Sequence record: OZ335960.1
Length of the DNA: 64,000 nucleotides
From: a phage
Strand: one strand, 5' to 3'
Shown: in pieces, positions 7,461 through 20,715 of the stretch
Layout of the letters: every line of letters starts with the position of its first letter
How positions within the stretch are numbered: the stretch's first letter is position 1
The notes under the pieces: model-generated
The model's input: only the letters and a program-made list of their open reading frames with translations
Told to the model about the DNA's origin: nothing
Database searches by the model: none
Position numbers and translations under genes: made by a program

Positions 7461-8270
7461 ATGCTTAAAGAACAACTGATTGCTGAAGCGCAAAAAATTG
7501 ATGCTTCCGTTGCTCTTGATAGTATTTTCGAATCAGTTAATATTTCTCCGGAAGCAAAAGAAACTTTCGGCACTGTATTCGAAGCTACCGTCAAGCAGCA
7601 CGCCGTTAAATTAGCTGAATCTCATATCGCTAAAATTGCTGAAAAAGCAGAAGAAGAAGTAGAAAAAAATAAAGAAGAAGCCGAAGAAAAAGCTGAGAAG
7701 AAAATCGCTGAGCAAGCTTCTAAATTCATCGACCATCTTGCGAAAGAATGGCTCGCTGAAAATAAATTAGCAGTTGATAAAGGCATCAAAGCCGAACTGT
7801 TTGAATCCATGCTTGGTGGATTAAAAGAGCTCTTTGTTGAACACAACGTTGTTGTTCCAGAAGAATCAGTTGATGTTGTAGCTGAAATGGAAGAAGAGCT
7901 GCAAGAACATAAAGAAGAATCAGCTCGTCTGTTCGAAGAACTCAATAAGCGTGACGCATATATCAATTATGTGCAGCGTGAAGTGGCATTGAGCGAAAGT
8001 ACTAAAGATCTGACTGAGTCTCAAAAAGAAAAAGTCTCTGCTCTGGTCGAAGGTATGGATTATTCAGATGCATTCTCAAGTAAATTGAGTGCCATCGTAG
8101 AAATGGTGAAGAAGTCTAATAAAGATGAAAGCACTATTACTGAGGGTATAAATACTCCTGATACTGAAGCAGCCGGACTGAATTTCGTCACTGAAGCTGT
8201 AGAAGATAAAGCTGCACCTGGTGCAGAAGATATTGTAAGTGTATATGCGAAAGTCGCATCTCGTTTCTAA
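7461..8270 (+). CDS. 22: Prohead core scaffold protein gp22
   Basis: 269-aa highly charged coiled-coil-like protein immediately upstream of major capsid gene. Confidence 0.9.
   Translation: MLKEQLIAEAQKIDASVALDSIFESVNISPEAKETFGTVFEATVKQHAVKLAESHIAKIAEKAEEEVEKNKEEAEEKAEKKIAEQASKFIDHLAKEWLAENKLAVDKGIKAELFESMLGGLKELFVEHNVVVPEESVDVVAEMEEELQEHKEESARLFEELNKRDAYINYVQREVALSESTKDLTESQKEKVSALVEGMDYSDAFSSKLSAIVEMVKKSNKDESTITEGINTPDTEAAGLNFVTEAVEDKAAPGAEDIVSVYAKVASRF
8147..8154 (+). promoter_or_regulatory. Late promoter box TATAAATA (gene 23 promoter inside gene 22)
   Basis: GGGTATAAATACTCCTGATACTG inside the 3' end of gene 22, where I recall the T4 P23 late promoter. Confidence 0.6.
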
Positions 8271-8288
8271 TTTTAAAGGTTAACACAA

Positions 8289-9854
8289 ATGACTATCAAA
8301 ACTAAAGCTGAACTTTTGAACAAATGGAAGCCATTACTGGAAGGTGAAGGTTTACCGGAAATTGCTAATAGCAAACAAGCGATTATCGCTAAAATCTTTG
8401 AAAACCAGGAAAAAGATTTCCAGACAGCTCCAGAATATAAAGACGAAAAAATCGCTCAGGCGTTCGGTTCTTTCTTAACAGAAGCTGAAATCGGTGGTGA
8501 CCACGGTTACAACGCTACTAACATCGCTGCTGGTCAGACTTCTGGCGCAGTAACTCAGATTGGCCCAGCTGTTATGGGTATGGTACGTCGTGCTATTCCT
8601 AACCTGATTGCTTTCGATATTTGTGGTGTTCAGCCGATGAACAGCCCGACTGGCCAGGTATTCGCACTGCGCGCAGTATATGGTAAAGACCCAATCGCTT
8701 CCGGTGCTAAAGAAGCATTCCATCCAATGTATGGTCCAGATGCAATGTTCTCCGGTCAGGGTGCTGCTAAGAAATTCCCAGCTCTGGCTGCTAGCACAGA
8801 AACCGTTGTAGGTGACATCTATACTCACTTCTTCCAGGAAACTGGTACTGTGTATCTGCAAGCTTCTGCTCAAGTAACAATTAGTGCAAGCGCAACTGAC
8901 GCTGCTAAATTAGATGCTGAAATTAAGAAACAAATGGAAGCTGGTGTACTGGTAGAAATCGCTGAAGGTATGGCTACTTCTATCGCTGAACTTCAGGAAG
9001 GTTTCAACGGTTCTACCGATAACCCATGGAATGAAATGGGCTTCCGTATCGATAAACAAGTTATCGAAGCTAAATCTCGTCAGCTGAAAGCTGCTTACTC
9101 TATCGAATTAGCACAAGACCTCCGCGCTGTTCACGGTATGGATGCTGATGCTGAACTGTCTGGTATTCTGGCTACCGAAATCATGCTGGAAATCAACCGT
9201 GAAGTTGTTGATTGGATTAACTACTCAGCTCAGGTTGGTAAATCTGGTATGACCCTAACTCCGGGTTCTAAAGCTGGTGTGTTTGACTTCCAGGATCCGA
9301 TTGATATTCGTGGCGCTCGCTGGGCGGGTGAATCCTTTAAAGCTCTGTTGTTCCAGATTGACAAAGAAGCAGTTGAAATTGCTCGTCAGACCGGTCGTGG
9401 TGAAGGTAACTTCATTATCGCTTCCCGTAACGTAGTTAACGTTCTGGCTTCAGTTGATACCGGCATTTCTTATGCTGCACAGGGTCTGGCTACCGGCTTT
9501 AACACTGATACTACCAAGTCAGTATTTGCTGGTGTTCTGGGTGGTAAATACCGTGTATATATCGACCAGTATGCTAAACAGGATTATTTCACTGTAGGTT
9601 ATAAAGGTCCGAACGAAATGGATGCTGGTATTTACTACGCCCCATATGTAGCTCTGACTCCGCTGCGTGGTTCCGATCCGAAGAACTTCCAACCGGTAAT
9701 GGGATTCAAAACTCGTTACGGTATCGGTATCAACCCATTTGCAGAATCCGCTGCTCAGGCTCCGGCTTCTCGCATCCAGAGCGGTATGCCTTCTATTCTG
9801 AATAGCCTTGGTAAAAACGCTTACTTCCGCCGTGTATATGTTAAAGGTATCTAA
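8289..9854 (+). CDS. 23: Major capsid protein gp23
   Basis: 521-aa ORF, T4 gp23 length; strong codon bias; followed by strong terminator. Confidence 0.97.
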   Translation: MTIKTKAELLNKWKPLLEGEGLPEIANSKQAIIAKIFENQEKDFQTAPEYKDEKIAQAFGSFLTEAEIGGDHGYNATNIAAGQTSGAVTQIGPAVMGMVRRAIPNLIAFDICGVQPMNSPTGQVFALRAVYGKDPIASGAKEAFHPMYGPDAMFSGQGAAKKFPALAASTETVVGDIYTHFFQETGTVYLQASAQVTISASATDAAKLDAEIKKQMEAGVLVEIAEGMATSIAELQEGFNGSTDNPWNEMGFRIDKQVIEAKSRQLKAAYSIELAQDLRAVHGMDADAELSGILATEIMLEINREVVDWINYSAQVGKSGMTLTPGSKAGVFDFQDPIDIRGARWAGESFKALLFQIDKEAVEIARQTGRGEGNFIIASRNVVNVLASVDTGISYAAQGLATGFNTDTTKSVFAGVLGGKYRVYIDQYAKQDYFTVGYKGPNEMDAGIYYAPYVALTPLRGSDPKNFQPVMGFKTRYGIGINPFAESAAQAPASRIQSGMPSILNSLGKNAYFRRVYVKGI

Positions 9855-9868
9855 TCTTTGACGATTTA

Positions 9869-9899
9869 AGGGACCTTCGGGTCCCTTTAGTTGTTTTTA
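9869..9899 (+). terminator. Rho-independent terminator after gene 23
   Basis: AGGGACC-TTCG-GGTCCCT followed by TTAGTTGTTTTT. Confidence 0.8.
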
Positions 9900-9902
9900 T
9901 GG

Positions 9903-9910
9903 TATAAATA
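9903..9910 (+). promoter_or_regulatory. Late promoter box TATAAATA (gene 24)
   Basis: Exact match between the gene 23 terminator and gene 24 start. Confidence 0.6.
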
Positions 9911-9937
9911 AATCATATAAACCAAAAGGAAAGCGCA

Positions 9938-11221
9938 ATGGCTAAAATCAACGAACTTCTGCGCGAATCAACCACAACGAATAGCAACTCAATCGGTCGC
10001 CCAAATCTCGTTGCTTTGACTCGCGCTACCACTAAATTAATATATTCTGACATTGTAGCAACGCAAAGAACTAATCAACCTGTTGCTGCTTTTTATGGTA
10101 TCAAATACCTTAACCCAGATAACGAATTTACATTTAAAACTGGTGCTACTTACGCTGGTGAAGCTGGGTATGTAGACCGAGAACAAATCACAGAATTAAC
10201 AGAAGAGTCTAAATTAACTCTCAATAAAGGCGATTTATTCAAATATAATAATATCGTTTATAAAGTATTAGAAGATACACCATTTGCTGATATTGAAGAA
10301 AGCGATTTAGAATTAGCTCTTCAGATTGCAATCGTTCTTTTAAAGGTTCGTCTATTTTCTGATGCTGCAGTAACAAGCAAATTTGAAAGCTCTGATAGTG
10401 AAATTGCGGATGCTAGATTCCAGATTAATAAATGGCAAACCGCAGTTAAATCTCGTAAACTTAAAACTGGCATCACAGTTGAATTAGCACAAGATTTAGA
10501 AGCAAATGGATTCGATGCTCCTAATTTCTTGGAAGATTTGCTTGCAACTGAAATGGCGGATGAAATCAATAAAGATATTCTACAGTCTCTGATTACAGTA
10601 TCAAAACGCTATAAAGTTACAGGAATTACTGATACTGGATTCATTGATTTGAGTTATGCATCTGCACCTGAAGCTGGTCGTTCATTATACCGAATGGTGT
10701 GTGAAATGGTTTCACATATCCAGAAAGAATCAACTTATACAGCAACGTTCTGTGTTGCTTCAGCTCGTGCCGCTGCGATTCTTGCTGCATCAGGCTGGTT
10801 AAAACATAAACCAGAAGATGATAAATATCTTTCACAAAATGCCTATGGGTTCTTAGCTAATGGTTTACCGCTTTATTGCGATACCAACAGCCCATTAGAT
10901 TATGTAATCGTGGGTGTAGTAGAAAATATAGGTGAAAAAGAAATTGTTGGATCAATTTTCTATGCTCCGTATACAGAAGGCCTTGACTTAGATGACCCTG
11001 AACATGTAGGTGCATTTAAAGTTGTAGTTGATCCAGAAAGTTTGCAGCCATCTATCGGTTTATTAGTTAGATATGCTTTATCTGCAAATCCTTACACTGT
11101 AGCAAAAGATGAAAAAGAAGCAAGAGTAATTGACGGTGGAGACATGGATAAAATGGCGGGTCGTTCAGATTTGTCTGTTTTATTAGGTGTTAAGCTACCA
11201 AAAATTATCATTGATGAATAA
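9938..11221 (+). CDS. 24: Capsid vertex protein gp24
   Basis: 427-aa ORF, gp23 paralog position/length as in T4. Confidence 0.93.
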   Translation: MAKINELLRESTTTNSNSIGRPNLVALTRATTKLIYSDIVATQRTNQPVAAFYGIKYLNPDNEFTFKTGATYAGEAGYVDREQITELTEESKLTLNKGDLFKYNNIVYKVLEDTPFADIEESDLELALQIAIVLLKVRLFSDAAVTSKFESSDSEIADARFQINKWQTAVKSRKLKTGITVELAQDLEANGFDAPNFLEDLLATEMADEINKDILQSLITVSKRYKVTGITDTGFIDLSYASAPEAGRSLYRMVCEMVSHIQKESTYTATFCVASARAAAILAASGWLKHKPEDDKYLSQNAYGFLANGLPLYCDTNSPLDYVIVGVVENIGEKEIVGSIFYAPYTEGLDLDDPEHVGAFKVVVDPESLQPSIGLLVRYALSANPYTVAKDEKEARVIDGGDMDKMAGRSDLSVLLGVKLPKIIIDE

Positions 11222-11224
11222 AAC

Positions 11225-11246
11225 AAAGGGACCGAAAGGTCCCTTT
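11225..11246. terminator. Bidirectional hairpin terminator between gene 24 and rnlB
   Basis: AAAGGGACC-GAAA-GGTCCCTTT with T-runs on both sides; convergent genes. Confidence 0.7.
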
Positions 11247-11250
11247 TTAT

Positions 11251-12255
11251 TTAACTTACCAATTCAATCCAAGCCGGACGAAGTACATCTTGTACCATTT
11301 TAACTAATTCCTTTTTAACCAAAGAAGGACTATCCGCTTGAGTTAGAGTAATACCTTCACGAGAAGTTTCTTCCAAAATATCTTGAACAGTTAGTCCCAT
11401 TACCTTTCCAAAATCTTTTGGACCAATTTCGCCAATTTTAGAAATAACGTTATTTACTCGGTTCAGTGTAACGTAACAAGCTAAAATTCCAACCAATTTG
11501 TTATCAGCTTCTGACAGTTCAACTTTAGCTTTAATAGGCTTATCAGACTTTTTCTTTTCACTAAATTTAGAGTTCTTGCATTTGATGGCTACACGATTGC
11601 GATTAGGCAGCCAAGAAGGATAACAAGGTTTCAATACATATCCTTCAGCGGTAAATACTTCGCCTTTTGCTTCGGCATTCCAAACGCATTTATTTGCATC
11701 AACTAATCCAGCGTGGTCTGCTGCAAAATTATAATCTTGGACGACAGAGTCTAAATCATTTGGCAATTTAATAAGTTCTTCAAATTTACCGCGACCTAAA
11801 AGTGGAGCCATTTTAAATTTAAATGTATTACAGAATGATTCCATCATATAATCATCGACATAAGTCACATCACCACTTTCTGTAGTAACAATAATGTCAA
11901 ATACATAAAAATCTTTATCGCCATAATCGACATTCTTCTGAATGCCAGGTCCGGCGAATTCGCCAAAAACTTGATAAGATACAACCGCTGAAGTTTCCAT
12001 AATATCTTGTACTGCTTTAATGGAATCAGCGTAATTCTTTAAAACAATTTCATACCCAAAGAAATCTTCAGCAGGAAGAATAGGACCAGTGCGTTTAGCA
12101 CAAGTTACTTTATCACGCTCAATAATCAACGAGAAATTTGTGCCATGAATCTTTTCACGAGCTACCCATTCGCCGCCAGTCAATCCTAAACTGTAAAGTT
12201 TTTCAATGAATTTAGAATTGTAATGATTTTCAAGACTGCTATACTTTTTAAACAT
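11251..12255 (-). CDS. rnlB: RNA ligase 2 (Rnl2)
   Basis: 334-aa ORF; nucleotidyltransferase motif KIHGTN (lysine adenylation motif I); same length as T4 Rnl2. Confidence 0.93.
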
Positions 12256-12264
12256 AATTAATCC

Positions 12265-12543
12265 TCAAAATGTAATTTCTAACCAATCACCATCACGCTG
12301 ATCACTATTGACTTTAAAGCTAAATCCTTCTTTTCTCAGCCAATCACCAATTTCTTCAGTAATCAATTTATCGCGAGCAGTACAATAATAACTAAAATAT
12401 GTTTTACCTTGCTCAGCTGCTTTATTAGCAAGTTCCGAAAAATCTTTAATAAAACACTCTAGCTTAAACTGTTTACTTTTAAGTGCTTTTTCGCGTAATC
12501 GATTAGCAAAAGATTCATTTTCATAAAGATCATACTGTTCCAT
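12265..12543 (-). CDS. Hypothetical protein (T4 24.2 position)
   Basis: 92-aa ORF between rnlB and hoc; positional inference only. Confidence 0.6.
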   Translation of the reverse strand: MEQYDLYENESFANRLREKALKSKQFKLECFIKDFSELANKAAEQGKTYFSYYCTARDKLITEEIGDWLRKEGFSFKVNSDQRDGDWLEITF

Positions 12544-12745
12544 TTTTCACCTTTTTATTAATATGTCTTTTTCTATAGACAACTTTTTCTCGAGTTTCAA
12601 ATTTATTCTTAGCAGTCATAGCTCGAGCCCATAATACAGCCACTTCTTTTGCCTGTAAGTTCAATTCACGAGCAATTTCAATGAATGACTTTCCAGACTC
12701 ATGAAGAGTAAACACCACAACCTCAGTTCTCATAATCAATCTCAT
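12530..12745 (-). CDS. Hypothetical protein (T4 24.3 position)
   Basis: 71-aa ORF; positional inference only. Confidence 0.55.
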   Translation of the reverse strand: MRLIMRTEVVVFTLHESGKSFIEIARELNLQAKEVAVLWARAMTAKNKFETREKVVYRKRHINKKVKNGTV

Positions 12746-12813
12746 GTTATTGAGTTGGTGCCATTATATACATCATTTTATGAGTGTGTTTTGTGTGCTT
12801 TCAAAATGAAGAA

Positions 12814-12829
12814 AGGGGCAGAAGCCCCT
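12814..12829 (-). terminator. Terminator hairpin after hoc (minus strand)
   Basis: AGGGGC-AGAA-GCCCCT; T-rich on the minus strand downstream. Confidence 0.6.
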
Positions 12830-12834
12830 TATGA

Positions 12835-14253
12835 TTATGGATAGGTATAGATGATACCAGTTTCTAAAGCAGTTTTATGAATGATGTATCCATTACGTGA
12901 TTCTTGAACATCAACTTCTGGATAGTCTTTCATCATCTTCTGAAGAGTGTAACGATGCAGGTAGTATTTACTATCTGGATCTTCAGTTTTCCAATCTTTA
13001 CCTTCTTCGGTCATTTTTTGGATTTCATCCATAACCCACCAACCGCACCAGATATAAGCTGAAGTACGATGTGGAAGAGGATGAACATAAGGCAATTCAC
13101 CTTCTGGTTCCGGAGCAACTTTATCAGTTACCTGAACTTGGCCTGTTGCTTTAACTGTTTTACTATCATAGTCGGTTGCTGTAACGACAGCAGTAACTTC
13201 AATAGTTTGACTTCCAATAGATGAGGTGTCAACGGTGTATACGTTAGTTGACACTTCTACAGGAGAAGAATCTTTCTTCCATGAATAAGTAATTTGTGCT
13301 GCTTCAGGTGCTCCAGTAACATTAGCCGTAAATGTAGCCGAAGCATCTTGCTGAACGTTAATAGAAGGAGGAGTCAATGTAACCTGTGGATTCATTGTTT
13401 TCTTATTAACTGTCAATGATACTTCATTAGAAGTAACTTCCTTTTCATTGTAATTTTCTGCGGTTACTTGCGCTACACATTTAATTCTTTTTACTCCACT
13501 TGTAGTTGGAGTATAGTTAAATGTAGAGTTAGTTTCTCCACCAATTTGAGAATCATCTACATACCATTTATATGTAGCAGCCGCTCCATCAGGTTGAGAA
13601 GCTAAGGCAGCAGTAAATTGAACTGGGGTTCCAATTACTCCAGCTGAAGGACTATTAGGAGTTACAGCTAAGGTAGTTGTCTGCGTCTTTTTATTAACTG
13701 TCAGTGACACTTCATTAGAAGTAACGCTCAGTGCATCATAATCTGTCGCAGTTACTTGAGCTATGCACTTGATTTTTTTAACTCCACTTGTGGTAGGAGT
13801 GTAATTGAATGTAGCAGAAGTTGCTTCGCTTACAGGAGAACCGTCAACGTGCCATTGATACGTGGCAGTTGCGCCCGATGGCTGTGAAGCTAAGGCAGCA
13901 GTAAATTGGACAGCTGTTCCGATTACTCCAGCTGGAGGACTAGCAGGAGTTACTGCCAAGGTAGTTGTTTGTGTTTTATTTTTAACTGTGATAGTTGTAC
14001 TAATTTCTGCTGTTTCAGGTTCAGATTCTGCAACTTGATTGGTTGCAACTACTTTAATAGTCTTTTGACCGGCAGGTCCTTTTAGTACATAACTAAAAGT
14101 TGCTGACGTTTCTTCCTGTGGAGCGTCGTCTACAGTCCAAGCATATGTAATAGGTCCATCTCCAGTTTGACCACTGGGTGTAGCAGTAAACTGCTGAGTC
14201 TGATCTATAACTCCAGTAGGTGTTTTAGGAGTTATATCAACTGTAAAAGCCAT
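12835..14253 (-). CDS. hoc: Hoc, highly immunogenic outer capsid protein, with one extra Ig-like domain
   Basis: 472-aa ORF; N-terminal MAFTVDITPKTPTGVIDQ and C-terminal capsid-binding region (WCGWWVMDEIQK) as in T4 Hoc (376 aa as I recall); contains two consecutive ~96-aa near-identical Ig-like units. Confidence 0.92.
   Translation of the reverse strand: MAFTVDITPKTPTGVIDQTQQFTATPSGQTGDGPITYAWTVDDAPQEETSATFSYVLKGPAGQKTIKVVATNQVAESEPETAEISTTITVKNKTQTTTLAVTPASPPAGVIGTAVQFTAALASQPSGATATYQWHVDGSPVSEATSATFNYTPTTSGVKKIKCIAQVTATDYDALSVTSNEVSLTVNKKTQTTTLAVTPNSPSAGVIGTPVQFTAALASQPDGAAATYKWYVDDSQIGGETNSTFNYTPTTSGVKRIKCVAQVTAENYNEKEVTSNEVSLTVNKKTMNPQVTLTPPSINVQQDASATFTANVTGAPEAAQITYSWKKDSSPVEVSTNVYTVDTSSIGSQTIEVTAVVTATDYDSKTVKATGQVQVTDKVAPEPEGELPYVHPLPHRTSAYIWCGWWVMDEIQKMTEEGKDWKTEDPDSKYYLHRYTLQKMMKDYPEVDVQESRNGYIIHKTALETGIIYTYP
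13402..13977 (-). repeat. Tandem direct repeat of ~288 bp (2 copies) encoding duplicated Hoc Ig-like domain
   Basis: Hoc residues ~93-188 and ~189-284 are near-identical (KTQTTTLAVTP...NEVSLTVNK twice); the DNA is visibly similar between the two copies. Confidence 0.85.
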
Positions 14254-14262
14254 AAGTTATCC

Positions 14263-14943
14263 TTATTTTAATGTTACGAAAGAAGAATTACGTGTTTCAC
14301 GAATTAGAACTGATCCGTCGCGATTAATGTAATAAATTAAGCTAAATAAAGTTTGGTGCGCCGCCGCGTGTTCAAAACTAGTTGGGTGAGATTTCCAATC
14401 CGGAGTTTCAGCAATCCACTGGTAAATCCACCAAGGAACGGTACAGAATCCTGGATTTTTTCCAATCAGCTGAAGATTCGGACTAAAGTTTTCCGGAAGA
14501 GTAAATACAGACGGCTTTTCAGATTCAATAATCTCAGCTACAGCCTGCTCGAATTTTTCTTCAACAAAAGGAGTATCTTCAATCAAAACATCGGTATTTT
14601 CAGGAATTTTATCCGTTTCTACTACTTCAATTTTAATGTCAGATTTAACCGGAGAATCAATCAGAAGTGCTGCCTCTGGATTGACTTCTTCATCGTCATA
14701 TTTTAATCCGTCTGCGGCATCAGCAGCATCAATTAAGTCTTTAATAGATAACCCATCAGTCTCTGGCATAGGTTCACTAGCGAGCTTCTGGAGGGCTTCT
14801 TCAATATCATTAACGATATTATCAAAAGATTTATTCTTTTTGACTTTTATACCAAACTGTTCAGCATATTCAGCTAATTTAGCTTTAGCTTCTTTATTAT
14901 CATCAAGAGCCTTCAGCTCTGCAATATAATCTTTATCTATCAT
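14263..14943 (-). CDS. inh: Inh, inhibitor of prohead protease
   Basis: 226-aa ORF immediately upstream (transcriptionally) of hoc, as in T4. Confidence 0.85.
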   Translation of the reverse strand: MIDKDYIAELKALDDNKEAKAKLAEYAEQFGIKVKKNKSFDNIVNDIEEALQKLASEPMPETDGLSIKDLIDAADAADGLKYDDEEVNPEAALLIDSPVKSDIKIEVVETDKIPENTDVLIEDTPFVEEKFEQAVAEIIESEKPSVFTLPENFSPNLQLIGKNPGFCTVPWWIYQWIAETPDWKSHPTSFEHAAAHQTLFSLIYYINRDGSVLIRETRNSSFVTLK

Positions 14944-14956
14944 AATATTTCCTCAG

Positions 14957-14964
14957 TATAAATA
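14957..14964 (+). promoter_or_regulatory. Late promoter box TATAAATA (uvsW)
   Basis: Exact match ~30 bp upstream of uvsW. Confidence 0.55.
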
Positions 14965-14993
14965 TAGATATATTTATTACATGGTATTTAGAC

Positions 14994-16505
14994 ATGACTG
15001 ACATTAAAGTACATTTTTATGATTTTAGTCACGTGAGAATTGATTGTGAAGAAAGTACATTTCATGAACTCCGTGATTTCTTTAGCTTTGAAGCCGATGG
15101 GTATCGTTTTAATCCAAAGTACAAATATGGTCACTGGGATGGACGAATCCGTCTTTTAGATTATAATCGTCTTCTTCCATTCGGCTTAGTCGGGCAAATT
15201 AAAAAGTTCTGCGATAACTTTGGCTATAAAGCCTGGATTGACCCACAGATTAACGAAAAAGAAGAATTATCAAGAAAAGATTTTGATGAATGGCTTTCTA
15301 AATTAGAAATCTATTCAGGAAATAAAAGAATTGAACCACACTGGTATCAAAAAGATGCAGTGTTCGAAGGATTAGTTAATCGTCGTAGAATTCTTAATCT
15401 TCCAACATCCGCAGGTAAATCTTTAATTCAAGCTTTGCTTGCTCGATATTATTTGGAAAATTATGAAGGCAAAATTCTTATCATTGTTCCAACAACTGCT
15501 CTGACAACTCAGATGGCTGATGACTTTGTTGACTATCGTTTATTCAGTCATGCAATGATAAAGAAAATCGGCGGTGGAGCATCAAAAGATGATAAATATA
15601 AAAATGATGCACCAGTCGTTGTTGGTACATGGCAAACTGTAGTAAAACAACCAAAAGAATGGTTCTCACAGTTTGGAATGATGATGAATGATGAATGTCA
15701 TCTTGCTACAGGAAAAAGTATTTCATCTATCATATCAGGTTTAAATAACTGCATGTTCAAATTTGGTTTGTCTGGTTCATTACGTGATGGCAAAGCTAAT
15801 ATCATGCAGTATGTTGGAATGTTTGGTGAAATATTTAAGCCAGTAACGACTTCTAAATTAATGGAAGATGGACAAGTAACCGAGTTAAAAATTAATAGTA
15901 TTTTTCTTCGCTATCCCGATGAGTTCACTACTAAATTAAAGGGAAAAACTTACCAAGAAGAAATAAAAATTATTACTGGGCTCAGTAAAAGAAATAAATG
16001 GATCGCTAAATTAGCTATTAAGCTTGCACAAAAAGATGAAAACGCTTTTGTCATGTTTAAGCATGTATCACATGGTAAAGCTATTTTCGATTTAATTAAA
16101 AATGAATACGATAAAGTTTATTACGTATCAGGGGAAGTTGATACCGAAACCCGCAATATAATGAAAACCTTAGCTGAAAACGGTAAAGGAATAATTATAG
16201 TAGCTAGTTATGGTGTATTTTCTACCGGTATTTCAGTTAAAAATCTGCATCACGTTGTTTTAGCACACGGTGTTAAATCTAAAATTATTGTATTGCAAAC
16301 AATAGGTCGCGTATTACGTAAGCATGGTTCCAAAACAATCGCAACAGTCTGGGACCTCATCGATGATTGTGGTGTTAAGCCAAAATCTGCTAATACGAAA
16401 AAGAAATATGTTCATTTGAACTATCTTTTAAAACACGGCATTGATCGTATTCAGCGCTACGCAGATGAAAAATTTAATTACGTAATGAAAACAGTTAATT
16501 TATAA
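14994..16505 (+). CDS. uvsW: UvsW DNA/RNA helicase
   Basis: 503-aa ORF with helicase motifs (LPTSAGKS Walker A, DECH box). Confidence 0.93.
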   Translation: MTDIKVHFYDFSHVRIDCEESTFHELRDFFSFEADGYRFNPKYKYGHWDGRIRLLDYNRLLPFGLVGQIKKFCDNFGYKAWIDPQINEKEELSRKDFDEWLSKLEIYSGNKRIEPHWYQKDAVFEGLVNRRRILNLPTSAGKSLIQALLARYYLENYEGKILIIVPTTALTTQMADDFVDYRLFSHAMIKKIGGGASKDDKYKNDAPVVVGTWQTVVKQPKEWFSQFGMMMNDECHLATGKSISSIISGLNNCMFKFGLSGSLRDGKANIMQYVGMFGEIFKPVTTSKLMEDGQVTELKINSIFLRYPDEFTTKLKGKTYQEEIKIITGLSKRNKWIAKLAIKLAQKDENAFVMFKHVSHGKAIFDLIKNEYDKVYYVSGEVDTETRNIMKTLAENGKGIIIVASYGVFSTGISVKNLHHVVLAHGVKSKIIVLQTIGRVLRKHGSKTIATVWDLIDDCGVKPKSANTKKKYVHLNYLLKHGIDRIQRYADEKFNYVMKTVNL

Positions 16506-16530
16506 GGGCTTCGGCCCTTTGGAGAAAAAG

Positions 16531-16761
16531 ATGTTACTAGAATTTAAACAATTTCTTTATGAAGCTTCTATTGATGAATTTATGGGTAAAATTGCCTCTT
16601 GTCAAACAATAGAAGGTCTAGAAGAACTTGAAGCTTATTATAAGAAAAGAGTTAAAGAAACTGAATTAAAAGATACTGATGACATCTCAGTCAGAGATGC
16701 TTTGGCAGGAAAAAGAGCTGAATTAGAAGATTCAGACGATGAAGTAGAAGAAAGCTTTTAA
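16531..16761 (+). CDS. uvsW.1: UvsW.1 small acidic protein
   Basis: ORF track start 16519 is TTG; ATG at 16531 preceded by GGAG gives 76 aa; directly downstream of uvsW. Confidence 0.7.
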   Translation: MLLEFKQFLYEASIDEFMGKIASCQTIEGLEELEAYYKKRVKETELKDTDDISVRDALAGKRAELEDSDDEVEESF

Positions 16762-16770
16762 ATTAAAAAA

Positions 16771-16792
16771 GGCCCAACCAAAAGGAAGGGCC
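16771..16792 (-). terminator. Terminator hairpin after uvsY.-2 (minus strand)
   Basis: Minus strand reads GGCCC-12 nt-GGGCC followed by TTTTTT. Confidence 0.55.
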
Positions 16793-16815
16793 AAAACTAT
16801 AGACTAAAGGTCACA

Positions 16816-16983
16816 CTATAGCAAAAGTTGTGTTTCATTTAATTGTTCTTCCGAACTTTCTGAAACTGGTAGTTCTTTAATGTAATTATAACAAGGCCCA
16901 GGATGTACAGGACCTTTGTCTGTTTCAACAACCAATGCAGAATCGATTGGAGTTTTACAGACAACACAAATCTTATCTGACAT
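16816..16983 (-). CDS. Small Cys-containing protein (T4 uvsY.-2 position)
   Basis: 55-codon minus-strand ORF found by hand (MSDKICVVCKTPIDS...), below the ORF-track size cutoff; followed by a minus-strand hairpin plus T-tract. Confidence 0.5.
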   Translation of the reverse strand: MSDKICVVCKTPIDSALVVETDKGPVHPGPCYNYIKELPVSESSEEQLNETQLLL

Positions 16984-17011
16984 GATTGTCTCCTCTAAAT
17001 TATATATCTAT

Positions 17012-17236
17012 TTATATAACTCTCATATGCATATCAATGCCCATATCTTTAGAATAAAAATATTCATCAAGATATCCAGCAAATTTTCCTTTAACATAAA
17101 GTACATCTTCACCGCATGGGTGGTCGGCCAGGATACGAATATCCTGACGCTTGAGATTATACTTTTTCATTAAGAATTGAATTTCCGTTTCGAATTCTTC
17201 TTCATAATTAAAAGCATCATCAATGCTATATTTCAT
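17012..17236 (-). CDS. Hypothetical protein (T4 uvsY.-1 position)
   Basis: 74-aa ORF abutting the uvsY stop. Confidence 0.65.
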   Translation of the reverse strand: MKYSIDDAFNYEEEFETEIQFLMKKYNLKRQDIRILADHPCGEDVLYVKGKFAGYLDEYFYSKDMGIDMHMRVI

Positions 17237-17649
17237 TATTTTCCAGCCTCAAATGCTCGCATGTCTTGAATGTGCTTAATAGCAAATCCGCGTGATTTAA
17301 TAGCATCAAGAGCTCCGCTACAGAAATCCAATAAAATTCCCCAATATTGTAATGAAGTATCAACTTTTAAAACATCCTTATCAGCTGATAGAACTGTCTT
17401 CATTTCTGATTTCTCATAACGGTCCATACTAAATTCATCACCATCTCCTCGTCCCGAGTAGTAGTCTAATTTAGCTTTAAGAGCAACTTTTTTCTGTGCT
17501 TCAATTCTAAGCATTTCCTTTTTAATACTTGAATGCTTATTAAGCCATTTACTATATAACATCACATTATTAGCTGCTTCATACTGTAATTTAGTCGAAT
17601 CTATAAACACATCTTTCTTCAATTCTTCTTGAAGATCTTCTAATTTCAT
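17236..17649 (-). CDS. uvsY: UvsY recombination mediator protein
   Basis: 137-aa ORF, T4 UvsY length and sequence character. Confidence 0.93.
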   Translation of the reverse strand: MKLEDLQEELKKDVFIDSTKLQYEAANNVMLYSKWLNKHSSIKKEMLRIEAQKKVALKAKLDYYSGRGDGDEFSMDRYEKSEMKTVLSADKDVLKVDTSLQYWGILLDFCSGALDAIKSRGFAIKHIQDMRAFEAGK

Positions 17650-17715
17650 ATTGTTCTCTATTCAATTGTTATTGGATGGACTTAGATTCATTATACCACG
17701 TTTATACGTGAAGCA

Positions 17716-18114
17716 TTATACTCTGTTACTTGAAGCCAGTTGTAGTTTTATCTGCTCAATATCATCAGGGTTATCGATGACTGAAAAGCGTATTTCTACT
17801 ATTAGAGTATAATCATCATAAACTGGTATTACATTAACTGCTAATTTATCAATACGTGGCTCGTAGTTTCTTACTGCGCTTTCAATGTTACGCTCAACAG
17901 TATCAGCAGTAAGAGGAGTCATATTCTCAAAAAGCTGATCAGATAAATCGCATCCAAATTCTGGGTCAAATGGCCTTGACCCTTTCCTGGTTGTAATAAT
18001 TCCTAAAAGGCTATTTTTAATTGACCTTAATCCAAGGGATCTTGAAACATCTTTGTCCCAATCCATTTTCATTTCTGGGTCAATGTCAGAATAAAGCTTA
18101 TTAATATTTGCCAT
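17716..18114 (-). CDS. 25: Baseplate wedge protein gp25
   Basis: 132-aa ORF (T4 gp25 length), gpW/lysozyme-like baseplate family position. Confidence 0.92.
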   Translation of the reverse strand: MANINKLYSDIDPEMKMDWDKDVSRSLGLRSIKNSLLGIITTRKGSRPFDPEFGCDLSDQLFENMTPLTADTVERNIESAVRNYEPRIDKLAVNVIPVYDDYTLIVEIRFSVIDNPDDIEQIKLQLASSNRV

Positions 18115-18740
18115 TATAATAGCTCAAAGAATTCTTTGAGTCCTCTTATTACATGAGCGTGAGTTTTTCCACACTCTGGACACTTAATTGGAACAGCCAA
18201 ATAAACAGTAGGCTTTAAAAGCATATCTTTTATAGCTACAATATCTGACTCTGTGATGATAGAGTATAAATCTTCCAGTTCTTTTTCATTTAAGTCTTCA
18301 ACTGGAATGCTTTCACCATTAGCATGAATCGTTTCTATGCATGATACTATCATGTGGGCTATATTTTTATCATCAAAAATTTTAGGGTAATGGAACTTAA
18401 TTTTAATGTCACCCAGTGTATACCAGAGGTCTTCTGGCGCATCTATTTGTGTATGTAATAGATTTATATGGGTTGGTATTTCAGTTCCACAGGTGCACTT
18501 CCAGGAGTTTTCGTGATTAACTTCTCCAAGAGAATGCGCCCATAAATGAATCAATAATAGTTCTGATTCTTGGCGGTTTAAATCTTTTGCATTTGTACAG
18601 TCTTTAATTAGCTTTTTAACGATCTCTTCTACTGAACCGTTCTTTTTAGCAGTAATAAGTTCTAGATATTCTTTAAGAGTAAATGTGCGACAGTTGATTA
18701 TTTTAGAACCAACTTTCACATCAAATTTGTATTCATACAT
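18114..18740 (-). CDS. 26: Baseplate hub protein gp26
   Basis: 208-aa ORF divergent from gene 51. Confidence 0.88.
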
Positions 18741-18762
18741 ATTTAGCTCCTTTATTTATCAT

Positions 18763-18770
18763 ATTTATAA
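18763..18770 (-). promoter_or_regulatory. Late promoter box TATAAATA (gene 26, minus strand)
   Basis: Forward TATTTATA = reverse TATAAATA, overlapping the divergent gene 51 box. Confidence 0.5.
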
Positions 18771-18773
18771 ATA
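18766..18773 (+). promoter_or_regulatory. Late promoter box TATAAATA (gene 51)
   Basis: Exact match ~20 bp upstream of gene 51. Confidence 0.55.
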
Positions 18774-18790
18774 GAATAAAAGGAGCATCT

Positions 18791-19540
18791 ATGGCAAACA
18801 TTATTCGTTGTAAATTACCAGATGGTGTTCATCGTTTTAAACCATTTACGGTAGAAGATTATCGAGATTTTTTGTTAGTTCGAAACGATATAGAACATCG
18901 GTCACCACAAGAACAAAAAGAAATAATTGCTGATTTAATTGCTGATTATTTTGGAGACTATCCGAAGACTTGGCAACCATTTATATTTTTACAGGTATTT
19001 GTAGGGTCAATAGGCAAAACTAAAGTACCAGTCACATTTGTATGCCCAAAATGTAAAAAAGAAAAGACAGTTCCATTTGAAATATATCAAAAAGAATTAA
19101 AGGAACCTATTTTTGACGTAGCTAATGTTAGAATTAAATTAAAGTTTCCTTCTGAGTTTTATGAAAATAAAGCAAAGATGATTACTGAAAATATTCATTC
19201 TGTCCAAGTAGATGAAATGTGGTATGATTGGAAGGAAATTAGCGAATCGAGTCAAATAGAACTTGTTGATGCCATCGAGATAGAAACATTAGAAAAAATT
19301 CTTGATGCAATGAATCCTATTAATTTAACATTGCATATGTCATGTTGTAATAAGTATGTAAAAAAATACACTGATATAGTAGATGTGTTTAAGCTATTAG
19401 TTAATCCAGATGAGATATTTACTTTTTATCAAATTAATCACACACTTGTAAAAAGTAATTATAGCTTAAATTCAATAATGAAAATGATTCCTGCTGAGCG
19501 CGGATTCGTATTAAAACTGATTGAGAAGGATAAACAATAA
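18791..19540 (+). CDS. 51: Baseplate hub assembly protein gp51
   Basis: 249-aa ORF, position 26/51/27 as in T4. Confidence 0.88.
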
Positions 19541-20715
19541 TGAGTATGTTGCAACGCCCCGGATATCCAAATCTCAGCGTTAAATTATTTGAGAGTTATG
19601 ACGCTTGGAGTAATAATAGATTTGTTGAATTAGCTGCTACTATTACCACATTAACTATGCGGGATTCTCTTTATGGTCGAAATGAAGGAATGCTGCAGTT
19701 TTATGATTCTAAAAATATCCATACAAAAATGGATGGAAATGAAATAATTCAGATTTCTGTAGCTAATGCAAACGATATTAATAATGTTAAAACAAGAATT
19801 TATGGATGTAAGCATTTTTCAGTGTCAGTAGATTCAAAGGGTGATAACATCATTGCTATTGAATTGGGAACTATTCATTCCATAGAAAATCTTAAATTTG
19901 GCAGACCGTTTTTCTCTGATGTAGGTGAATCTATAAAAGAAATGCTTGGCGTCATTTACCAGGATCGCACATTATTAACTCCAGCAATAAATGCTATAAA
20001 TGCATATGTTCCTGATATTCCATGGACTAGCACATTTGAAAACTATTTGTCATATGTCAGAGAAGTTGCTCTAGCTGTAGGAAGTGACAAATTTGTATTT
20101 GTATGGCAAGACATCATGGGAGTTAACATGATGGACTATGATATGATGATAAATCAAGAACCATATCCAATGATTGTCGGTGAGCCATCTTTAATAGGTC
20201 AATTCATCCAAGAATTAAAATATCCATTAGCATATGATTTCGTTTGGTTGACTAAATCGAATCCTCACAAACGTGACCCAATGAAAAATGCTACTATCTA
20301 TGCTCATTCATTTTTAGATTCTTCATTGCCAATGATTACTACAGGAAAGGGCGAAAACTCTATTGTAGTATCAAGGTCAGGTGCTTATTCTGAAATGACT
20401 TATAGGAATGGCTATGAAGAAGCTATTCGTCTTCAAACTATGGCACAATACGATGGCTATGCTAAATGTTCTACTGTCGGTAATTTTAACTTGACTCCTG
20501 GCGTTAAAATTATTTTTAATGATAGTAAAAACCAATTTAAAACAGAATTTTACGTTGATGAAGTTATCCATGAATTATCCAATAATAATTCAGTAACTCA
20601 TCTATATATGTTCACTAATGCAACGAAACTGGAAACAATAGACCCAGTTAAGGTTAAAAATGAATTTAAATCTGATACTACCACTGAAGAAAGTAGTTCT
20701 TCCAATAAGCAATAA
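19540..20715 (+). CDS. 27: Baseplate hub protein gp27
   Basis: 391-aa ORF (T4 gp27 length). Confidence 0.92.

Follow-up and report, generated by a model that had tools for sequence, protein, structure and literature searches.

The hoc gene of the phage DNA analysed here (a 64,000-nucleotide stretch of record OZ335960.1, hereafter the window) encodes a Hoc protein of five domains, and it is very probably the AB variant in an old polymorphism of T4-like phages, in which hoc alleles differ in the number and kind of their cassettes. According to this model, the middle of the Hoc fibre consists of one to three 96-residue units, drawn from three related types and arranged in the order A, B, C; the window has AB and T4 only B. 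The A/B split is an old duplication, both copies of which have been retained by purifying selection, and alleles would be reshuffled between phages and between units by gene conversion and homologous recombination, with the conserved heads and tails of the units as plausible substrates. The protein would be incorporated into the virion at each gp23 hexamer centre as in T4, with a longer fibre and possibly a changed adhesion.

Domain organization of the Hoc protein

The coding sequence and its domains are arranged as follows, in order from the N-terminus.

12835..14253, minus strand: hoc coding sequence, 472 amino acids plus stop; four Ig-like domains, then a C-terminal capsid-binding domain
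13978..14253, minus strand: Ig-like domain 1 (D1, residues 1-92), orthologue of T4 domain 1 by alignment; all-beta in the AlphaFold2 model, pLDDT about 90
13690..13977, minus strand: unit A, Ig-like/PKD (residues 93-188), not in T4; Pfam PKD / Ig_2 / BiPBP_C
13402..13689, minus strand: unit B, Ig-like/PKD (residues 189-284), orthologous to T4 Hoc domain 2 and clustering with T4's unit
13126..13401, minus strand: Ig-like domain 4 (D4, residues 285-376), orthologue of T4 domain 3 by alignment; Pfam Ig_3 / I-set, 289-374
12838..13125, minus strand: C-terminal capsid-binding domain (residues 377-472), nearly invariant among 41 Hocs compared

T4 hoc has 1131 nucleotides and encodes 376 amino acids, against 472 for the product of the window. 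A preliminary description had given these two lengths correctly, and had attributed the excess to one 96-residue unit present twice in tandem, at residues 93-188 and 189-284. Tandem Repeats Finder, self-comparison and BLASTP all bear this out, and the coordinates it had assigned to the pair (13402-13977) correspond exactly to residues 93-284. Tandem Repeats Finder reports a single array at 13403-13989, with a period of 288 nucleotides, 2.0 copies, 77% matches and a score of 687. The optimum register of the repeat is 93-95. Units A and B are identical at 73/96 amino acids and 218/288 nucleotides (76% in both), and BLASTP aligns them without gaps at 76% identity (E=4e-52). The repeat thus exists where it had been placed, keeps the reading frame and is far too strong to be due to chance.

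Alignment to T4 Hoc, which the preliminary description had proposed as a check, places exactly one 96-residue unit fewer in T4. MAFFT aligns the two proteins at 88% identity with a single 96-residue gap in T4. A phmmer search matches the T4 Hoc chain 5vf3_Z with E=1e-215, T4 residues 1-113 corresponding to query residues 1-113 and T4 residues 94-376 to query residues 190-472. The single unit of T4 is 88.5% identical in nucleotides to B and 79.5% to A; because it is closer to B, the unit missing from T4 is A (13690-13977).

Four Pfam families, PKD, PKD_4, Ig_2 and BiPBP_C, cover units A and B, and in the window Hoc each of PKD, Ig_2, Ig_3 and I-set passes its Pfam gathering cutoff. PKD (PF00801) reaches 43.8 bits for the whole protein (cutoff 23.5) in two stretches, one in each unit, the better of which spans residues 195-267 in unit B. 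An AlphaFold2 model was built from a 40-sequence alignment without a row for T4 Hoc. It contains four all-beta domains in residues 1-376 (pLDDT about 90), while the C-terminal domain is modelled poorly (pLDDT 35-66) and the inter-domain geometry of the model is unreliable. In a Foldseek search of the PDB with this model, the top matches are strings of four Ig domains (Dscam1 Ig1-4, ICAM-5 D1-D4 and an ice adhesin with Ig-like repeats), and the crystal structure of RB49 Hoc (3shs) is matched with E=3e-10. Unit A also aligns with D1 (43% over 69 amino acids, E=9e-12) and with D4 (44% over 63 amino acids, E=3e-11). D1 and D4 are therefore more distant relatives of the units, and the whole fibre is a product of serial duplication, in which A and B are the youngest pair.

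The hoc locus

In T4, the genes at this locus follow the order g23, g24, rnlB, 24.2, 24.3, hoc, inh, uvsW. Gene order and strands around hoc in the window are those of T4, except that segD and segE are missing. The neighbouring genes and the putative signals flanking hoc are the following.

8289-9854, plus strand: g23
9938-11221, plus strand: g24
11251-12255, minus strand: rnlB
12803..12830, minus strand: terminator-like hairpin AAGGGGC-TTCT-GCCCCTT with a T-rich tail, beginning 5 nt past the hoc stop
14260..14264, minus strand: Shine-Dalgarno-like AAGGA, 6 nt upstream of the hoc ATG and overlapping the inh stop codon; read from the sequence
14263-14943, minus strand: inh
14994-16505, plus strand: uvsW

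The missing genes, segD and segE, are GIY-YIG homing-endonuclease genes of T4. In T4, segD lies between g23 and g24 and segE between inh and uvsW, whereas in the window these places are occupied only by gaps of 83 nt (9855-9937) and 50 nt (14944-14993), respectively. The rnlB-24.2-24.3-hoc-inh-uvsW synteny, together with the 88%-identical alignment, upholds the earlier identification of the protein as Hoc. Its C-terminal domain is homologous to T4 residues 281-376, a string of Ig-like domains precedes it, and the gene lies between inh and 24.3 near g23 and g24. The open reading frame at the position of gene 24.3 (12530-12745, minus strand) comes to 71 amino acids by the first-start rule; it has 67 in the ECp13 annotation and 56 in T4.

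A 'terminator' is annotated in phage NBG2 at the place that matches the hairpin downstream of hoc. No minus-strand copy of the T4 late promoter TATAAATA was found in 14944-15000, directly upstream of inh-hoc. On that strand the closest copy is 17009-17016; another, at 14957-14964, belongs to the plus strand and points towards uvsW. In the whole window the motif occurs 19 times against 8.5 expected, a count reached in none of 100 shuffles.

For the region from 8000 to 20000 of the window, the best whole-region match is Escherichia phage ECp13 (97.8% identity), classified in its record as Tequatrovirus (Straboviridae, Tevenvirinae); the 14 other records listed reach 97.2-97.5%.

Unit types and their distribution among phages

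Clustering at 16% amino acid distance of 171 units, cut from 122 Hoc proteins, sorts them into three types (A, B and C) that are specific to position. Type A is the first unit in 29/30 Hocs of 472 amino acids and in 8/8 of 568/570 amino acids, and it also occurs in 11 single-unit forms. Type B is the second unit in 25 of the 30 Hocs of 472 amino acids; it is also the only unit in 60 Hocs, T4 Hoc among them. Type C is found as the third unit in most 568-residue Hocs, as the second in four 472-residue Hocs, and in 10 single-unit forms. By architecture the proteins divide into A (11), B (60), C (10), AB (26), AC (3), BC (1), ABC (6), ABB (2), Ax (1) and Axx (1), frequencies that are biased since the clustered proteins were ranked by similarity to the window Hoc. 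A reversed unit order was found in none of the 122 proteins. The boundaries between types are fuzzy: identity within a type averages 88% and between A and B 81%, and some A-B pairs reach 95%. Such fuzziness fits conversion between units, whose tracts blur the classification.

Among the 120 matches listed from a search of 5.8 billion protein clusters, 78 Hocs have 376 amino acids, 29 have 472 and nine have 567-570; the few that remain are one to five residues longer or shorter than these main length classes. The phage records that match hoc number 681, of which 60 were sampled at even steps along the ranking. A two-unit hoc is present in 25 of the 60 (about 40%), including RB27, wV7, PP01, pSs-1, ECO4 and PhiZZ30, and a single-unit hoc in 28, including T4, T2 and HY01; the other seven have a partial or divergent hoc. 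The 568-residue class makes up 9/122 of the clustered proteins and 0/60 of the evenly sampled records. The four-Ig Hoc is thus a common, long-deposited and ordinary allele.

Age and origin of the A/B pair

By the Nei-Gojobori method, A and B differ by dS=0.98 and dN=0.157 (dN/dS=0.16), values that point to purifying selection on both units. The same method gives the following dS values between the window and T4: inh 0.12, Hoc C-terminal domain 0.20, rnlB 0.23, unit B 0.27, D1 0.32 and D3 (D4 of the window) 0.51. Synonymous divergence between A and B, which is near saturation, is thus 2-8 times that of the segments orthologous between the window and T4 (0.12-0.51), and the A/B split is several times as old as the divergence of this phage from T4.

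These values bear directly on the possibility that a T4-type domain 2 was duplicated recently, in tandem and in frame, in the lineage of this phage. The preliminary description had called the duplication fairly recent, and this part of it did not hold. It is true that the two units stand next to each other in the same reading frame, have the same length, and resemble each other more than any other two of the four Ig domains do. Copies made recently would nevertheless be closest to each other and would show low synonymous divergence, and what is found is the opposite on both counts: A and B match units of other phages at up to 95/96 amino acids, compared with 73/96 mutually, and their dS far exceeds that between the window and T4. 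Moreover, each unit is common to dozens of phages in the same position, and the AB arrangement occurs in dozens of distinct clusters as well as in about four in ten of the sampled records. A recent duplication is therefore highly improbable. A mis-assembled repeat or an annotation error that created a spurious extra unit deserves still less credence. Tandem repeats are generally prone to mis-assembly, but these copies differ at 70/288 nucleotides (24%) and cannot be confused by an assembler, the reading frame is intact, and the identical architecture recurs in many independently sequenced genomes. On account of the 24% divergence we rejected this explanation.

The direction of change is a closer question. 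The AB or ABC array may be ancestral, so that the 376-residue Hoc of T4 would be a deletion derivative, a proposal that we regard as quite plausible though slightly short of probable. Single-unit Hocs exist of each type, A, B and C, and the two-unit forms AB, AC and BC are collinear, as would result from deletions in ABC. The T4 unit itself carries a possible trace of such a history: around its nucleotides 229-252 (TDYDALS) identity is 96% with A but 46% with B, while the rest is B-like. This patch of about 25 nt suggests that T4 was once in contact with an A unit, now lost, which donated it by gene conversion. On the other hand, insertion of a cassette by recombination between phages could give an equal pattern in this unrooted comparison, and the 568-residue forms are rare, as the counts above indicate. 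Against the preferred model, the longest exact in-register matches between A and B span only 13-23 nt, which is little for homologous recombination to work efficiently inside a single gene. A further proposal, which we hold to be rather unlikely, is that recombination together with diversifying or balancing selection maintains the combinations of a collinear A-B-C array, tuning fibre length and glycan or surface specificity combinatorially. If true, array combinations would match the fibre to different mucosal or bacterial surfaces.

A mosaic allele

Consistent with a polymorphism that is reshuffled between phages, as the preferred model proposes, the window Hoc resembles different proteins in different domains. 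The exact protein is absent from a collection of 15 billion sequences; the best full-length match is 95%. Its DNA is 95.8% identical to hoc of ECp13, compared with 97.8% for the surrounding 12 kb, and the difference is unevenly distributed: unit A and the C-terminal domain are 99.3% identical, unit B and D4 96.5-97.1%, and D1 86.6%. A sharp recombination boundary lies at the D1/A junction, setting off the segment 13978-14253 of the window from ECp13. The low identity of D1 indicates an allele swap, and at least two allelic types of D1 exist among the 472-residue Hocs. The best match of each domain comes from a different protein: P0015 for D1 (91/92), P0010 for A and B (95/96), and P0023 and others for D4 (91/92). 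Judged from these domain-by-domain comparisons, the window Hoc is a recombinant that joins known domain alleles in a new way.

Capsid binding and the likely fibre

All 16 residues of the T4 capsid-binding domain named in PMC10385173 are present in the window Hoc, at the T4 numbering plus 96: Y293, H295, H299, R300, Y304, W306, W309, W310, D313, Q354 and E355-S-R-N-G359-Y360. In that study each of them counts as a gp23 contact or as a conserved structural residue. Residues 320-350 of gp23, which include the docking region 326-344, are identical to those of T4. Since both the capsid-binding domain and the docking loop of gp23 are as in T4, seating at the hexamer centre is expected; by analogy, the window Hoc would be made late, with one molecule per gp23 hexamer centre. 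The calculated pI is 4.81 for the window Hoc and 4.74 for T4 Hoc, so that the acidic character discussed in PMC10385173 is retained.

T4 Hoc forms a fibre of ~180 A with four domains (PMC10385173). By simple scaling, the fibre of the window Hoc is likely to be about one Ig domain longer, that is, by roughly 45 A, to give about 225 A. It is reasonable to suppose that a longer fibre may alter adherence or display.

Relation to known Hoc proteins

T4 Hoc (NP_049793; PDB 5vf3, 8t1x, 8t9r) and the window Hoc are alike in locus, synteny, D1, D2 (unit B), D3 and the capsid-binding domain. They differ in that T4 has one middle unit, of type B with the A-like patch, whereas the window adds a type A unit between D1 and B. 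The closest relatives are the 472-residue Hocs (ECp13, RB27, wV7, PP01, pSs-1, ECO4, G4507 and others), which share the AB architecture and the length at 88-95% amino acid identity and are labelled 'Hoc-like head decoration' or 'PKD domain protein' in GenBank; compared with them, the window has a D1 allele like that of P0015/P0013 and units A and B like those of P0010/ECp13. In the Escherichia phages UGKSEcP1 and UGKSEcP2 (P0001, P0008), Hoc has 568/570 amino acids and its first two units are likewise A and B, but a third unit (C or a second B) follows, which makes five Ig-like domains against four in the window.

Variability of this kind has been described before. Fokine, Rao and colleagues compared 650 Hoc homologues and described variable strings of up to 10 Ig-like domains, with "great variability" even among close relatives of T4 (PMC10385173). 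The Hoc homologue of Serratia phage Muldoon, for example, has 1174 amino acids and 10 Ig-like domains (PMC10385173). Like the window Hoc, those of Muldoon and RB49 (3shs) combine a conserved capsid anchor at the C-terminus with Ig-like domains in a row, but their sequences are far more divergent and their domain counts differ. In Klebsiella phage PMBT63 the Hoc-like protein comprises four Ig-like domains, one of them formed by an insertion (Lys109-Glu209) that T4 Hoc lacks, and mucin retention has been demonstrated experimentally (PMC13435897). Its likeness to the window Hoc is drawn from the published description; it is 46% identical to T4 Hoc and belongs to another phage and host.

A variable number of Ig-like domains in Hoc, including the four-Ig form, is therefore already known from the literature. 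Our literature search returned no study devoted to the two-unit Hoc allele found in close relatives of T4, and none in which their A/B/C cassette pattern is set out. The pattern is a modest refinement and no new kind of thing; its value as a discovery is small and its use chiefly practical. T4 is unrepresentative for Hoc length, about four in ten of its sequenced relatives having a four-Ig Hoc, and the hoc allele is worth checking wherever non-T4 relatives are used in phage-display or vaccine designs or in studies of mucus adherence (BAM model). Natural alleles of one, two and three units on genomes that are ~97% identical also offer a ready series for work on mucin binding, aggregation and immunogenicity.

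Irregular database records

Several records that surfaced in these comparisons carry unexpected names or lengths. In the T2 record NC_054931.1, the hoc region (105474-106590) spans 1117 nt, not 1131, and bears two 'Hoc-like head decoration' coding sequences; T2 hoc may be disrupted in this record. Many Hoc clusters are named 'PKD domain-containing protein [Escherichia coli]', and one cluster of 472-residue Hocs is named 'endonuclease [Shigella sonnei]' (the clusters include P0035, P0003 and P0017). Such clusters represent phage sequences contained in bacterial assemblies, with a wrong product name in at least one case. Finally, the 32-kb record MG010123.1, 'Staphylococcus phage SAJK-IND', is 97.3% identical to the T4-like region over 12 kb and is probably mislabelled or a contaminant.
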